A stretch of 4,274 bases of DNA, taken from the IMG/VR virus record IMGVR_UViG_2690316115_000023, one strand, 5' to 3'. Source of the DNA: a virus (Duplodnaviria; Heunggongvirae; Uroviricota; Caudoviricetes). Numbering within the stretch: the stretch's first letter is position 1; the number at the start of each line of letters is the position of its first letter. A program made the translations under genes and the position numbers. This document shows, piece by piece, positions 861 through 2,955 of the stretch. The notes under the pieces were generated by a model. That model did no database searches, had not been told where the DNA came from, and saw only the letters and a list, made by a program, of their open reading frames with translations.

Positions 861-1074
861 AACCCCCCCCATTTTCACAATCAGCAACAAGAATATTTTT
901 AGCGTCATTCAGCGACCGCGTTGCGATGTATCGGATACATTCCAGGGCGAACGTTGTCCGGTCTTTCTGTTCTTCTCCCTGCGCAAGCTCTGCCGTGCAT
1001 TCAATATCAATAAGCGCGTGCATCAGCGTAGTGAGCGCGGCGGCGGCTGCGTCCGGTGTGGTTTTATTGCACAT
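853..1074 (-). CDS. Small hypothetical protein (73 aa), first member of a three-paralog array
   Basis: ATG at 1074 with AGGAGG 6 nt upstream; the start overlaps the upstream stop by 11 nt. TGA stop at 855..853. Shares the motif PD-A/D-AA-A/D-AL-T/S-T/S-L/I and NIL with the next gene, with synonymous codon differences. Confidence 0.6.
   Translation of the reverse strand: MCNKTTPDAAAAALTTLMHALIDIECTAELAQGEEQKDRTTFALECIRYIATRSLNDAKNILVADCENGGGYA
863..870. repeat. Homopolymeric C8 (G8 on the coding strand) tract at the junction of two overlapping genes
   Basis: Eight consecutive C at 863..870. It encodes Gly-Gly-Gly at the C-terminus of the upstream gene and sits 2 nt upstream of the ATG of the downstream gene. 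Confidence 0.9.
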
Positions 1075-1255
1075 GGCACACCTCCTGACGAATACGGGCG
1101 GCGAATACAGCAACACAACCGGACGGGCAACGGCTACGTGCTTCGCGTTCCGTCCAGGCGGTTACGTGGATGATTTGATGTTCTGACGCGCCAAAGATGA
1201 TAAAGCGCCAGAGAAAGGCGGTTTGAGAATGTACAAGGGTAGGGATAGTAGCCAT
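1064..1255 (-). CDS. Icd-like small protein, copy A (63 aa), translatable independently from an internal start
   Basis: ATG at 1255 with GAGGAGG 8 nt upstream. Sequence MATIPTLVHSQTAFLWRF...EREARSRCPSGCVAVFAARIRQEVCHVQ. The family assignment is from recalled Icd-like sequences (F-x-W-x-F near the N-terminus, EQEAR ... F-x-A-R near the C-terminus) and is unverified. Confidence 0.6.
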   Translation of the reverse strand: MATIPTLVHSQTAFLWRFIIFGASEHQIIHVTAWTEREARSRCPSGCVAVFAARIRQEVCHVQ

Positions 1256-1624
1256 GTTGGCAGCCTCCTCAGTGTGGTTAAGATAACCGCCACCGGAAAC
1301 GCCAATTTCGCTGGTGGCGGACTGTACAGGGTTGGCGTAACCGGACACTGAAGAAACCGGCGCGGATTGCTCCGCCCCCGTACAGCCCACCATTGATAAG
1401 GTGTGACTATGCGGCACAAAAAAACACGCGGGGCGCGTGTTATGCGCTTCAGTTTTGCCCAGGACGCCAATCCCGGCACCCGTTTTATGAGGTGCGCGGG
1501 AATCATAGCTATTTTCGACACTGGCGATCAACTGGTTTTTTTCTCCGATATTCAGGGCCAGAAAACGCCACACAAAGGCCGTTTGTGTGTGTACAAGGTG
1601 TGGTATATGATTTACGGCAACCAT
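1064..1624 (-). CDS. Two-domain read-through ORF (186 aa): tandem paralogous domains, tentatively Icd-like (host cell division inhibitor-like), joined by a Gly/Ser-rich linker
   Basis: ATG at 1624 with AGGAG 5 nt upstream (the ORF-track extension to GTG 1723 has no SD). The N-domain (PHLVHTQTAFVWRF...TEAHNTRPACFFV) and C-domain (PTLVHSQTAFLWRF...EREARSRCPSGCVAVFAARIRQEV) align with several synonymous codon differences (CAC/CAT, ACG/ACC, CGT/CGC), indicating protein-level conservation. There is no in-frame stop between them. TAA stop at 1066..1064. Confidence 0.5.
   Translation of the reverse strand: MVAVNHIPHLVHTQTAFVWRFLALNIGEKNQLIASVENSYDSRAPHKTGAGIGVLGKTEAHNTRPACFFVPHSHTLSMVGCTGAEQSAPVSSVSGYANPVQSATSEIGVSGGGYLNHTEEAANMATIPTLVHSQTAFLWRFIIFGASEHQIIHVTAWTEREARSRCPSGCVAVFAARIRQEVCHVQ
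1418..1440 (-). terminator. Intragenic intrinsic-terminator-like hairpin inside the first Icd-like domain
   Basis: On the minus strand: ACACGCG-CCC-CGCGUGU (7-bp GC-rich stem, 3-nt loop) followed by U6. It lies within the codons for NTRPACFF. Confidence 0.4.
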
Positions 1625-1654
1625 AACGGCTCCTAGTTTACGTTGTTGGTTAGA

Positions 1655-1697
1655 AGCCCTGCGAGTGGTAATGACACTTGCGGGGCTTTGCTTTTTT
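1655..1697 (+). terminator. Plus-oriented intrinsic terminator upstream of the RHH promoter region
   Basis: 13-bp stem (1655..1667 with 1675..1687, two G-U pairs), 7-nt loop, followed by UUGCUUUUUU. On the minus strand the two G-U pairs become C-A mismatches, so the structure is strand-specific. Confidence 0.55.
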
Positions 1698-1713
1698 AAG
1701 TGCTCTTGTGTTA

Positions 1714-1725
1714 AGGTGACCACCT
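1714..1725. promoter_or_regulatory. Palindromic operator-like site 1 (AGGTG-AC-CACCT)
   Basis: Perfect 5-bp inverted repeat with a 2-bp spacer, in the divergent intergenic region between the RHH gene (plus) and the small-protein operon (minus). Confidence 0.45.
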
Positions 1726-1748
1726 AACAATGGAAAGGCTAATTCAAT

Positions 1749-1760
1749 AGGTGACCACTT
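1749..1760. promoter_or_regulatory. Palindromic operator-like site 2 (AGGTG-AC-CACTT)
   Basis: Near-perfect inverted repeat overlapping the SD and start codon of the RHH gene; 35 bp from site 1. Confidence 0.45.
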
Positions 1761-1950
1761 GTCAACAATCAAACGCGATAAAAGCCCTAAAGGGGACGGG
1801 CAATCCCCACAATTCAGAATGCGAATTTCTCCAGAGCTAAAAGAGCAATTCGACAAAGAAGCACAGAGCGACGGCATAAGCCTAGCCAACTGGCTTAAAG
1901 AGTTGGGGCGCACTGAACTAAAGCGGCGCGGCATAGAACCCAAAGGATAA
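1759..1950 (+). CDS. Ribbon-helix-helix (Arc/Mnt/CopG-type) DNA-binding protein (63 aa from TTG 1759; 43 aa from ATG 1819)
   Basis: FRMRISPELKEQFDKEAQSDGISLANWLKEL fits the RHH fold pattern: a beta-strand with alternating residues, then helix A, a G-x-S turn and helix B (compare Mnt FNFRMPMEVREKLKFRAEANGRSMNSELL). The TTG start has AGGTG 5 nt upstream, overlapping the second palindrome. TAA stop at 1948..1950. Confidence 0.65.
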   Translation: MSTIKRDKSPKGDGQSPQFRMRISPELKEQFDKEAQSDGISLANWLKELGRTELKRRGIEPKG

Positions 1951-1992
1951 AAACTATCAGCGCCGTGGTGTGAGGTATTACGGCGCATTGCT

Positions 1993-2181
1993 ATGCAGGA
2001 CAACACAATGACCGATAAAGAATTGACCAAAACATTATCACCGGCACGGAAAAGACGGCGCAGAAAGATAGAGCATGAATCAGAAAGATTCGCACCATGT
2101 GCTTTTGCCCTTGAGCAATTCCTTAAAGAGTATAGGGAAAAGCGCTCATTGCAGGTATGGCAACGAACTGAACCAGACTGA
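1993..2181 (+). CDS. Hypothetical small basic protein (62 aa; 57 aa from the ATG at 2008), possible partner of the RHH protein
   Basis: ORF 42 nt downstream of the RHH stop, followed about 95 nt later by the plus-strand terminator. Arg/Lys-rich (KRRRRK). There is no canonical SD: GAGGT lies 16 nt upstream, inside the loop of a 7-bp hairpin at 1960..1986. Rare codons are present. Weakly supported. Confidence 0.35.
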   Translation: MQDNTMTDKELTKTLSPARKRRRRKIEHESERFAPCAFALEQFLKEYREKRSLQVWQRTEPD

Positions 2182-2276
2182 TTGCATTGCCCACCAGCCT
2201 GATAGCGGCTATCATCCCCGTGCTTATGTTTGGGATCACATACACATAAGGCGCAGCGGGTTAATTGTTCAGAAAG

Positions 2277-2303
2277 GCGGCTCCATATCGGGGCCGCTTT
2301 TTT
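2277..2303 (+). terminator. Rho-independent terminator, plus-oriented, closing the RHH / small-ORF unit; a weaker structure on the minus strand could act after alpA
   Basis: Plus strand: GCGGCUCC-AUAUC-GGGGCCGC (8 bp including one G-U) followed by U6 at 2298..2303. The minus-strand version has a C-A mismatch and a poorer U tract. Confidence 0.65.
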
Positions 2304-2329: not shown

Positions 2330-2536
2330 TTAAGCAGCCGTTCCGCGTGCTTCCTGTTCGCGTTCTTTCTGCCAGGCCAACACATCATCCTCATACCATC
2401 CGCGACGGCGTAAACCAACGCGAAAACCCTGCGGAAATTCTCCGGCGTTGATCATGCTTTGCAGCGTGCTGTCTGCCTTGATGTGGATAATTTTTTTTAC
2501 TTCCTGGCGAAAGATAATTTTTCTGATTGCTTCCAT
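2330..2536 (-). CDS. alpA: AlpA / Vis / excisionase-like HTH prophage regulatory protein (68 aa)
   Basis: The segment STLQSMINAGEFPQGFRVGLRRRGWYEDDVLAWQ matches the AlpA-family HTH pattern (S-T-I/L ... G-x-F-P ... G-x-R ... W ... V-x-x-W). ATG at 2536, with AAGGT 8-9 nt upstream; TAA stop at 2332..2330. Confidence 0.85.
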   Translation of the reverse strand: MEAIRKIIFRQEVKKIIHIKADSTLQSMINAGEFPQGFRVGLRRRGWYEDDVLAWQKEREQEARGTAA

Positions 2537-2669: not shown

Positions 2670-2693
2670 AAAAAAAGCGGCATTTCTGCCGCT
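2670..2693 (-). terminator. Rho-independent terminator ending the int / small-ORF transcript
   Basis: On the minus strand: GCGGCA-GAAA-UGCCGC hairpin (6-8 bp stem, 4-nt loop) followed immediately by U7 (plus-strand A7 at 2670..2676). Confidence 0.7.
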
Positions 2694-2703
2694 TCCAGGA
2701 TTG

Positions 2704-2955
2704 TTACCGCCATTTTTTGGGCCTGCCTCCGATCTTCATAGATGCCGGACGTACGACCTTATCAATACTTACCGCCAGATTTCTGGAAGCGCCACGGGAT
2801 ACCAGAAAGTCTACTACCTGTTTTTTTGATGGGGCCGTCGTTCTGTCCTCCGGATCGTAGGTTGACCAAAATTCATGCTGAACCATCAGGGCCAGTTGCA
2901 GCCCGTCGCAATTGCATCTGATATTTTTTTGCATCTTAACGGTTTCATGTTTCAC
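2704..2955 (-). CDS. Hypothetical small protein (83 aa from GTG; 76 aa from the internal ATG at 2934)
   Basis: ORF between int and alpA with TAA stop at 2706..2704, followed 11 nt later by a strong minus-strand intrinsic terminator. The start is weakly supported: GTG with AAGG only 2 nt upstream, or ATG at 2934 with no clear SD. No family recognised. Confidence 0.4.
   Translation of the reverse strand: MKHETVKMQKNIRCNCDGLQLALMVQHEFWSTYDPEDRTTAPSKKQVVDFLVSRGASRNLAVSIDKVVRPASMKIGGRPKKWR

Follow-up and report, generated by a model that had tools for sequence, protein, structure and literature searches.

The window analyzed here, a 4,274-bp stretch of viral DNA (IMG/VR record IMGVR_UViG_2690316115_000023; Caudoviricetes), is one end of a small integrated element that, judged by its gene content, is a phage-inducible chromosomal island (PICI) of the EcCICFT073 type. 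On its plus strand lies a cassette (1653-2303) that comprises a gene for a ribbon-helix-helix (RHH) protein, a second small open reading frame (ORF), termed ORF2 here, two plus-strand-specific terminators, and two AGGTGACCAC sites. Taken as a whole, this cassette is probably the protein arm of the island's immunity and regulation hub, with an Arc-like protein that would bind two operators and thereby control two promoters facing each other. We put forward more tentatively, as an idea that may well prove wrong, that it is an overlooked master repressor of Gram-negative PICIs, an Arc-like protein with many specificity types and a readable beta-strand/operator code, whose gene is often missed in annotation or displaced by a spurious antisense coding sequence, and that it works together with an antisense RNA and a C4 RNA and lies in an AlpA-flipped, eta-like frame. 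The functional assignments for the cassette all come from sequence comparison.

An earlier note, made from the letters of the window alone, had read this unit as an autoregulated switch, either an island repressor or immunity module or an antitoxin-first toxin-antitoxin pair. All of the elements that it listed are present, at most a few bases away from where it placed them, and the first of its two readings is strongly supported by comparative evidence. Its description of the cassette as the only plus-strand coding unit holds for conserved protein genes, the other annotated coding sequences (CDSs) in near-identical islands all being on the minus strand; the same 650 bp also hold a stop-free minus-strand frame. 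The features of the cassette are the following.

1653-1689, T tail to 1697, plus strand: upstream terminator hairpin (terminator scan)
1688..1717, plus strand: predicted promoter P_R of the RHH-ORF2 operon, -35 TTGCTT (1688-1693), extended -10 TGtTAAGGT (1709-1717)
1714..1725: candidate operator O1, AGGTGACCACCT, overlapping -10/+1 of P_R and lying at about +4 to +15 of P_L
1736..1765, minus strand: predicted leftward promoter P_L, -35 TTGACA (1765-1760), 18-nucleotide (nt) spacer, -10 TAGCCT (1741-1736)
1749..1760: candidate operator O2, AGGTGACCACTT, filling the -35/-10 spacer of P_L
1759-1950, plus strand: Arc-like RHH gene, 63 amino acids, TTG start (PHROG, AlphaFold2, homologs)
2008..2181, plus strand: ORF2, 57 amino acids (homologs, purifying selection)
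2271..2303, plus strand: intrinsic terminator of the RHH-ORF2 transcript (terminator scan, fold)
2315->1650, minus strand: stop-free leftward frame of 221 codons, antisense to the whole cassette

A predicted Arc-like fold for the RHH protein

The 63-amino-acid plus-strand protein is, according to its predicted structure, an Arc-like RHH protein, in agreement with the Arc/Mnt-type assignment made earlier. Homologs share the position of the start codon (ATG, GTG, or TTG) and begin with MST... at the same codon as the gene in the window. PHROG 228, "Arc-like repressor," matches the protein with an E value of 5.1e-7, and a phmmer comparison with P22 Arc from the PDB aligned the two proteins over their full length (E 0.2), with PQFRMR of the predicted beta-strand (SPQFRMR) opposite PQFNLR. 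A Pfam scan gave no Arc match at an E value of ≤0.1, and the Pfam HicB model (PF05534) scored 20.4 bits against a gathering score of 21. The structure prediction that had been proposed for both ORFs returned an Arc-like fold for the first one: the AlphaFold2 model (pLDDT 85) is predicted to consist of a strand and two helices, which span positions 24-36 and 41-55 when the initiator Met is left out, as in the 62-residue model (25-37 and 42-56 in full-protein numbering); this is the beta-alpha-alpha arrangement with an N-terminal extended strand of the Arc/MetJ fold. In a Foldseek search with this model, P22 Arc chains made up seven of the top ten PDB matches (TM 0.69-0.89, 20-28% identity).

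The protein has 54 homolog clusters, spread over many Enterobacterales, in genera including Providencia, Proteus, Morganella, Xenorhabdus, Dickeya, Erwinia, Pantoea, Edwardsiella, and Serratia. NCBI usually labels these homologs "HicB family antitoxin," a name that is widespread on homologs without a HicA partner. Amino acid identity in the plus frame is 0.61, with a mean BLOSUM score for substitutions of -0.01, compared to -0.88 in the antisense frame. The RHH gene holds the same place as in the window, as a lone opposite-strand gene between an AlpA homolog and the small genes leading to primase, in Providencia, Dickeya, and Edwardsiella and also in a Pasteurella element of 15 kb. A second RHH type, which looks unrelated (RefSeq "YlcI/YnfO family"), is present in some E. 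coli islands and has repeats of its own at the corresponding position. Two tandem RHH plus ORF2-like modules with different operator types were seen in some E. coli islands (L004 1480-2900, L005 1350-2900, and L006 1390-2900), kept apart by a fragment of the 5' end of an Icd-like gene and a copy of the hairpin.

Candidate operators change together with the predicted beta-strand

The motif AGGTGACCAC has exactly two occurrences, which begin at 1714 and 1749 and hence lie 35 bp apart; 0.18 matches are expected by chance, and at least two were obtained in 3 of 200 shuffles. The earlier note had described two AGGTG-AC-CACCT palindromes 35 bp apart, one of them overlapping the RHH start. Spacing and overlap stand, but only 1714-1725 is a full palindrome, and the second site (1749-1760) ends in ...CACTT, its last two bases being the first two of the TTG start codon. 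This second site also supplies the Shine-Dalgarno (SD) sequence of the RHH gene (AGGTG).

The DNA before the start codon was compared locus by locus with the predicted beta-strand residues in a set of ~87 loci from >25 genera (80 further loci were fetched, from as many species), and the operator core was found to change together with the variable residues of the strand:

QFRMR: operator pair AGGTGACCACCT / AGGTGACCAC, in all loci of six genera, with the same spacing
QFKMR: AGGTGGCCACCT, core GGCC
PFHMR: AGGTGTACACCT, core GTAC
TFQIR: AGGTACGTACCT, core ACGT
AFQIR: AGGTGTGTACCT
M/LFNVR: AGGTATAGACCT, core ATAG
PYQMR: GGTAATTACC, core AATT, in E. coli

The outer part of the operator, AGGT...ACCT, is constant across the alleles, and the varying center goes along with the residues that occupy the base-contacting positions of Arc. 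The six genera with the QFRMR strand and its operator pair are E. coli, Providencia, Dickeya, Erwinia, Xenorhabdus, and Pantoea; among nine such loci, O1 is 100% and O2 98% conserved, and the 23-bp spacer between them is 78% identical. At one Xenorhabdus locus the core of O2 is inverted (AGGTGGTCAC), as would be expected of a pseudo-symmetric site. Since the sites are identical amid diverged flanks, and since close relatives with different strands have different sites, the two palindromes can be read as the operators to which the RHH protein would bind; the comparative support for this is strong, and of all the results it is the strongest. Alleles with QFRMR or QFKMR all start with TTG, and the other alleles mostly start with ATG. 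The choice of start codon seems to be constrained by O2, because the first two bases of the codon are the last two of the operator.

Two predicted face-to-face promoters at the candidate operators

The -35 hexamer of P_L is the reverse complement of TGTCAA, the six bases that begin at the second base of the RHH start codon and end at the first base of its third codon. Of 84 distinct loci, 77 have a perfect TTGACA here and 5 more have it with one mismatch, and it is followed by TANNNT after an 18-nt spacer in 52 loci and a 17-nt spacer in 8. The same promoter design recurs in the type-A modules (TTGACG-18-TATAGT in EcCICFT073 and TTGACA-16-TATAAT in module 2 of L004). Transcription from P_L is predicted to start near 1729.

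P_R, with a predicted start near 1724, has a weak -35 hexamer that falls within the T tail of the upstream terminator and an extended -10 element. Of 75 distinct loci, 58 contain a TGnTAnnGT motif 47 to 48 nt ahead of TGTCAA (with the TG extension in 51 of these), and the P_R region is 99% identical among the nine QFRMR loci. The two promoters point at each other with predicted starts a few bases apart; O2 lies within the spacer of P_L, and O1 lies just past the predicted start of P_L and overlaps the extended -10 of P_R. From this conserved geometry, an RHH protein bound to O1 and O2 would be predicted to shut both P_L and P_R.

Immunity RNAs on the leftward operon

Downstream of P_L, the minus strand carries the following features.

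1064..1624 (or from 1723), minus strand: first leftward ORF, Ash/Icd-like, a putative eta analogue (Pfam, NCBIfam)
1531-1502, minus strand: promoter-like TTGATC-18-TATGAT ahead of isrK (promoter scan)
1495-1419, minus strand: isrK RNA (Rfam, 66 bits; gathering score 50)
1397-1310, minus strand: C4 antisense RNA (Rfam, 77.6 bits; gathering score 45)
1255-1064, minus strand: nested Icd-like gene (NCBIfam Icd-like, 2e-16)

The first leftward ORF has 186 or 219 amino acids (1624/1723->1064), matches Pfam Phage_ASH (6e-17), and has an Icd-like domain at its end. The isrK and C4 RNAs, which are immunity RNAs of the P4/P1 type, were not mentioned in the earlier note. IsrK is a structural homolog of seqA of P4, and CI/C4 RNA brings about premature termination of the replication operon (PMC4825925). 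In P4, the immunity RNAs sit within eta, which can be translated in full only on transcripts of a late promoter farther upstream, by coupling to the alpA homolog; this translation prevents termination (PMC10111431). The window has the same set of parts: a C4/CI antisense RNA and a seqA/isrK-like partner on the operon to be controlled, the long ORF over the RNA genes, the nested Icd-like gene, and the link to alpA, which would allow translational coupling. The match to the c4-a1b1 target in Rfam is below threshold. The region of the first leftward ORF is presumably the regulatory target of the cassette.

RefSeq annotates 1310-1531 as an "ash family protein" pseudogene and not as RNA genes. The N terminus of the first leftward ORF (..IPHLVHTQTAFVWRFLAL..) repeats that of the nested Icd-like gene (..IPTLVHSQTAFLWRFIIF..), an internal duplication that flanks the isrK and C4 RNAs (1064-1723).

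A candidate cis-antisense RNA ending at the upstream terminator

The plus-specific terminator that had been noticed upstream of the RHH gene was recovered by the terminator scan and by a far stronger fold on the plus strand: region 1618-1697 folds with -35.5 kcal/mol (z -5.2) as plus-strand RNA and with -21.5 kcal/mol as minus-strand RNA. Both terminators of the cassette fold better as plus-strand RNA, because several stem pairs are G.U on that strand only. In a comparison across loci that treated both strands symmetrically, the upstream hairpin was stabler as plus-strand RNA in 80 of 83 loci, and it is conserved in every genus. An RNAalifold run on 50 loci recovered two stem-loops in which 19 of 21 pairs have undergone compensatory double changes. 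These stem-loops and a promoter-like site ahead of them define two candidate features.

1583..1611, plus strand: candidate small RNA (sRNA) promoter, TTGTGT (1583-1588), 17-nt spacer, TATGAT (1606-1611)
1618..1697, plus strand: candidate cis-antisense sRNA of ~78 to 80 nt (fold, covariation, terminator scan)

The 5' stem-loop of the candidate sRNA presents an anti-SD sequence, CTCCT, in its loop, and the RNA is fully complementary to the SD sequence (1634-1630) and ATG (1624-1622) of the first leftward gene. Its candidate promoter falls inside the first codons of that gene. In 78 of 81 distinct loci, a TANNNT hexamer (e.g., TAGACT, TAGAAT, TATGCT, or TATGAT) precedes the hairpin by 41 to 53 nt (mode 48). 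When positions were grouped in 10-nt bins, the peak bin held 79 matches and the other bins 1 to 43 (median, ~15), with 4 on the opposite strand. Between the end of the hexamer and the start codon of the first leftward gene (in reverse complement) there are 10 or 4 nt, and the GGTA motif of the site is preserved in different reading frames of this overlapping gene, which argues for a signal at the DNA level. The upstream terminator probably belongs to a cis-antisense RNA of ~78 nt, as these comparative patterns suggest, a reading that the earlier note did not consider. In Rfam, the plus strand matched only rnk_pseudo (26 bits; gathering score 55), which we take to be a chance match below threshold, driven by the terminator.

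ORF2 and its surroundings

The second ORF (1993/2008-2181), given in the earlier note as 57 to 62 amino acids, is genuine; its homologs favor the ATG at 2008, giving 57 amino acids, and do not contain the upstream ATG at 1993. The homologs in related islands that the earlier note had proposed to look for were found, in 36 clusters that all come from E. coli or Shigella and in which the start is kept, indels preserve the frame, and a core of E-x-E-R-F-A-P-C-A-F-x-L-E-x-F-L-K is conserved. ORF2 is restricted to E. coli and Shigella and absent in most of the genera that carry the RHH gene. For most pairs pN/pS was between 0.22 and 0.68, the highest value being 0.9, and pS reached 0.7; since the wobble positions of the frames coincide, pN/pS alone cannot separate the strands, and the conservativeness of substitutions was used instead. 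Read in the plus frame, the substitutions are conservative (BLOSUM 0.0); read in the antisense frame, they are radical (-1.25). On these comparative grounds, ORF2 is a real gene under purifying selection.

For the ORF2 protein, AlphaFold2 predicts a disordered basic N terminus (SPARKRRRRK) followed by one long helix at residues 24-54 (pLDDT 70). It belongs to PHROG 21027, a family without assigned function. The statement that it fits no recognized toxin family was borne out by searches of Pfam, NCBIfam, and PADLOC (curated, toxin, and defense models), none of which gave a match, and tblastn against 50,697 phage records found nothing. A profile search of 1.84 billion representatives returned 9 clusters, all close relatives save one 1,141-amino-acid protein, whose 13 short repeated matches to the profile were taken as a putative repeat artifact. 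The idea that the Arg-rich N terminus is a lambda-N-like RNA-binding motif was dropped, as a 67-amino-acid variant lacks the stretch. A second ORF2 type in the tandem modules, of 75 amino acids, shares only the ..F-A-L-E-x-F.. core.

Within E. coli, where it is present in 1,218 of 5,426 genomes, ORF2 is always separated from the RHH gene by 57 nt, no matter which RHH type or integrase the island has, and an identical ORF2 protein is paired with an unrelated RHH type in L001 and EcCICFT073. Two further plus-strand features flank it.

1960..1986, plus strand: spacer hairpin GCGCCGTGG..ACGGCGC, conserved across E. coli modules irrespective of RHH type
2183..2270, plus strand: noncoding 3' block of ~90 bp, conserved in many E. 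coli islands

The hairpin lies in the RHH-ORF2 spacer (1951-2007), and its fold on its own is not significant (-17.7 kcal/mol; z -1.8). This spacer may mark a recombination boundary between interchangeable modules. The 3' block, which contains a promoter-like TTGCCC-17-TATCAT (2187-2215) and is partly replaced by other sequence in EcCICFT073, could be a 3' untranslated region element, the start of a small RNA, or a signal for the leftward transcript; RNA 2222-2303 folds with -28.4 kcal/mol (z -4.0), mostly owing to the terminator. The downstream plus-strand terminator proposed earlier was confirmed at 2271-2303. Region 2265-2303 folds with -21.4 kcal/mol (z -5.75) on the plus strand and with -12.3 kcal/mol on the minus strand, and the terminator is conserved in E. 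coli modules and lies 27 nt before the stop codon of the convergent alpA gene.

It is conceivable, though rather unlikely, that ORF2 is a dedicated regulatory partner of the switch, for example one that modulates AlpA, the RHH protein, or the immunity RNAs, and not cargo. Such a role would agree with the constant spacer and hairpin in E. coli islands of several integrase types, with the presence of ORF2 in both copies of the tandem modules and in the model island EcCICFT073, and with its basic N terminus, which suits nucleic acid binding. However, the gene is missing outside E. coli and Shigella, where the RHH gene, the operators, P_L, and the hairpin persist; in addition, its Arg-rich stretch is not conserved in the 67-amino-acid variant, and ORF2 shows no covariation with the RHH type. 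We prefer to regard ORF2 as an accessory or modulatory factor and not a toxin, which is the weakest step of our proposal.

A variable slot behind the RHH gene

Outside E. coli, the slot behind the RHH gene varies and is empty or filled with unrelated sequence in most genera. Its contents include a 50-amino-acid membrane peptide, a 128-amino-acid membrane protein, Hcp, DUF4225, PD-T7-1 (E 2e-153), a methyl-directed type II restriction enzyme (E 7e-43), an AriA/OLD-like ATPase, and, in one Pectobacterium relative, a MazF/PemK-domain protein. Genes of defense type were seen at L010 5203-6573, L067 3260-3745, L086 3194-5185, and L087 795-1790. From its contents, the slot looks like a defense hotspot that would be expressed with the repressor, which suggests a position for genes co-expressed with the repressor in the resting island.

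Defense genes behind the RHH gene in other genera, plus-strand terminators on both sides of the unit, and published models that require AlpA only would all fit another explanation, in which the RHH protein merely autoregulates an insulated cargo ("moron") operon, its overlap with the leftward promoter is incidental, and the island is not controlled. We regard this as improbable: the RHH gene and both operators are kept without any cargo, for example in Dickeya and Xenorhabdus; O2 sits in the spacer of a TTGACA promoter that is conserved in 77 of 84 loci; type-A modules repeat the same geometry in unrelated sequence; and the cassette always exactly heads the Icd/C4/primase operon.

The second possibility raised in the earlier note, a type II toxin-antitoxin pair with the RHH protein as autoregulating antitoxin and ORF2 as a new small toxin, is not supported, and we give it very little weight. 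It can draw on the name "HicB family antitoxin" that NCBI gives to many RHH homologs, on the near-threshold Pfam HicB score (20.4/21), on a layout of two genes in one operon, led by the RHH gene and with palindromes at its promoter, and on the MazF/PemK-domain protein in the slot of the Pectobacterium relative. However, the RHH fold fills nearly the whole 63 amino acids and leaves no neutralizing, toxin-binding extension; the N-terminal toxin-binding domain of HicB is not present in this protein, which is RHH only; no HicA was found in any neighborhood read; and ORF2 is predicted to be a disordered tail and one helix and matches neither HicA nor any other toxin, toxin-antitoxin, or defense family. 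The RHH gene is kept with an empty or unrelated slot in most genera, and this variability argues against an obligate pair. An identical ORF2 occurs beside an unrelated RHH type, so the two partners do not co-evolve, and the operators coincide with the promoter of the island's own leftward operon.

A stop-free frame antisense to the cassette

The stop-free minus-strand frame begins 15 nt after the alpA stop codon, ends 26 nt before the next ATG, and covers ~300 nt of noncoding DNA too. The RHH gene and ORF2 share one frame, and their wobble positions coincide with those of the minus frame, which makes the coding parts nearly stop-proof on the minus strand. In a simulation for the window alone that preserved the proteins, codon usage, and noncoding dinucleotides, the open frame had a P value of 0.0037. 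None of the 13 E. coli loci checked has a stop in the frame, although their RHH and operator types differ, and the frame reaches 432 to 628 codons where it is fused with the Ash/Icd ORF (a single frame of 432 to 433 codons in L002 and EcCICFT073). Such frames were seen at L002 4067-5362, L005 1159-2979, L094 297-2180, and L101 13752-15050. The product is rich in Cys, Ser, and Arg, changes radically between loci, and is not conserved as a protein. The cassette is nested antisense in an eta-like open frame, an arrangement absent from the earlier note, and by analogy with P4 the frame is best explained as the upstream part of an eta-like "bridge" ORF that links alpA to the Ash/Icd ORF. Ribosomes could then translate leftward transcripts of the alpA promoter along the full cassette, and this would shield the transcripts from termination.

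In strain MS 21-1, which is 100% identical, RefSeq calls the 221-amino-acid antisense frame a CDS in place of the two small genes, and elsewhere PGAP/RefSeq annotates it as a CDS or as an "Icd-like" or hypothetical pseudogene. Both small plus-strand genes are unannotated in L002 (4778-5293) and L003 (12011-12676), and ORF2 alone is unannotated in L001 (10995-11364).

That the 221-amino-acid minus ORF is the real gene and the two plus ORFs are shadow frames has almost no likelihood: its being open beyond chance in every E. coli locus checked, its tight packing, as for a member of an operon, between alpA and the following gene, and the PGAP annotations stand against protein-level constraint in the plus frames of both genes (identity and conservative substitutions), a confident Arc fold, RHH homologs where the minus frame is closed (e.g., L010, L054, and L073), and a radically changing product, and both could hold if the frame is translated only as a spacer, like P4 eta.

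A proposed switch

We favor the reading of the cassette as a repressor module of the island because it combines an Arc-like fold with covariation of operator core and beta-strand across genera, and because the operators lie on two conserved promoters with the gene at a constant position. In the proposed switch, the RHH protein would bind O1 and O2. Occupancy of O1 would autoregulate P_R, and occupancy of O2 would repress the leftward P_L. By analogy with P4 eta/CI and P1 c4/icd, P_L would launch transcripts that can be translated from ATG 1624 across isrK and C4 into the primase/helicase operon, and translation of the eta-like ORF would prevent premature termination, as in P4; shutting P_L would keep the island quiescent. 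As a second layer, the ~78-nt cis-antisense RNA, ending at the upstream terminator, would cover the SD sequence and start codon of this ORF. Upon induction, AlpA-dependent leftward transcription might read through the cassette along the stop-free frame, and this convergent transcription would then silence the RHH gene and reach the replication genes. ORF2 would be co-transcribed with the repressor and might act on a phage or host target.

Several observations weigh against this proposal. A consensus promoter scan of the window reported neither P_L nor P_R, and the -10 of P_L (TAGCCT) and the -35 of P_R (TTGCTT) in the window are weak; the promoter, operator, and sRNA assignments are consensus matches combined with comparative patterns. 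A clear T tail is missing in 40 of 81 upstream hairpins, so that termination may not be universal. The loci are phylogenetically related, many being from Pectobacterium, and the counts overstate their independence. Outside E. coli the stop-free frame is not general; 36 of 82 loci have no stop in it across the operators. ORF2 is kept in roughly one in five E. coli genomes, which would suit a core function more than interchangeable cargo. Published work credits AlpA as the activator, and the repressor may be only a minor layer. Finally, if P_L feeds C4, its repression seems counter-productive, yet a separate promoter-like site precedes isrK.

Genomic context of the cassette

On the side of the cassette opposite the leftward operon, the window contains the following features.

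2330..2536, minus strand: AlpA-like helix-turn-helix regulator, convergent with the cassette (PHROG, RefSeq annotation)
2696-2673, minus strand: strong terminator after the 83-amino-acid ORF
within 2673-2955, minus strand: 83-amino-acid ORF without family match, between int and alpA
4274->3033, minus strand: P4-type tyrosine integrase

The AlpA-like gene matches a PHROG excisionase/regulator family (E 5.5e-7), and the Pfam AlpA and HTH_17 models both score below threshold. Because a strong minus-strand terminator follows the 83-amino-acid ORF, the arrangement suggests that int and this ORF form a transcription unit separate from alpA. Past the cassette region, the minus strand holds a run of small genes, the last of which is DUF4222.

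DNA near-identical to the window is present in 2,213 of 5,426 complete E. coli genomes, and the annotated near-identical islands adjoin tRNA-Pro/yejM. Annotated relatives continue with a RepA-family helicase, SSB, PerC, the major capsid protein, head decoration, and the small terminase (terS), giving the gene order int - alpA - cassette - Icd/C4 - DUF4222 - RepA helicase - capsid/terS at tRNA-Pro. This is the layout of a Gram-negative PICI, with int-alpA, then replication genes, and then packaging genes at a specific integration site, and the gene set matches that described for EcCICFT073, the model Gram-negative PICI (PMC6092414). EcCICFT073 itself was located in the CFT073 chromosome, where the cassette again lies on the opposite strand and encodes the identical ORF2 protein.

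Significance and comparison with known systems

PICIs spread virulence, resistance, and defense genes. An Arc-like candidate at the head of the replication operon, in EcCICFT073 too, makes the open repressor question testable. The beta-strand/operator table from the ~87 loci is an unusually clean natural code of RHH recognition and predicts single-residue specificity swaps. The analysis also points to annotation errors, with an antisense CDS or "Icd-like" pseudogene replacing two small genes and RHH homologs called HicB antitoxins, and to a new location for defense genes (PD-T7-1, a methyl-directed restriction enzyme, and an OLD/AriA-like ATPase) in the slot behind the repressor gene.

Our literature searches found no RHH, Arc, or other repressor reported for Gram-negative PICIs. 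The "putative repressor" of EcCIMP1 was considered as a precedent and set aside, since it is unrelated and a PerC homolog. The publication on EcCICFT073 does not treat the cassette and calls it unclear whether a global repressor exists (PMC6092414). EcCICFT073 shares with the window the gene order, the opposite-strand two-gene cassette, the 57-nt spacer, a 100% identical ORF2, the hairpin and terminator, and an open sense frame, there of 433 codons. In contrast to the window, its RHH protein is of the other type ("YlcI/YnfO family"), with its own repeats, GGTGTGGCCCAC.

Like HicB-type and other RHH antitoxins, the cassette combines an RHH DNA-binding fold with palindromic sites that would be autoregulatory, but unlike HicB systems it comes without HicA, the N-terminal HicB domain, or a conserved toxin, and its Pfam score falls short of the threshold. 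DNA-binding repressors of the Stl type are far larger and fold differently. As with Stl of SaPIs and Rpr of Gram-positive PICIs, the window has a repressor (here a candidate) opposite the replication operon with a compact promoter region; unlike Stl, the RHH protein has 63 amino acids and no obvious sensor domain. The layout with the repressor opposite the replication operon has been described for Gram-positive PICIs, and Stl-type repressors are inactivated by a helper-phage protein.

P4 immunity resembles the window in having a CI-like (C4) and a seqA-like (isrK) RNA inside a long leftward ORF with a nested Icd/Kil-like gene and an AlpA/Vis homolog upstream, and the stop-free frame links alpA to the ORF, as for eta (PMC10111431). 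The immunity of P4 rests on CI RNA, with no mention of a protein repressor or of antisense genes within eta (PMC10111431). Unlike P4, the window has an Arc-like cassette antisense in the eta-like frame, with candidate operators on an extra promoter.

The immI region of P22 encodes the Arc and Mnt repressors and an antisense RNA, sar, that covers the ribosome site of ant. The window shares with it a small repressor candidate of predicted Arc fold, operators (here candidates) over closely spaced opposing promoters, and a short cis-antisense RNA, predicted here, over the ribosome site of the first gene. It differs from immI in having one RHH gene instead of two, with ~25% identity to Arc, in presumably controlling a satellite replication operon with C4 and isrK in place of an antirepressor gene, and in residing in a satellite and not a phage. 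In a satellite family from which no repressor has been reported, the cassette is closest to a hybrid of P22 immI and P4 immunity.

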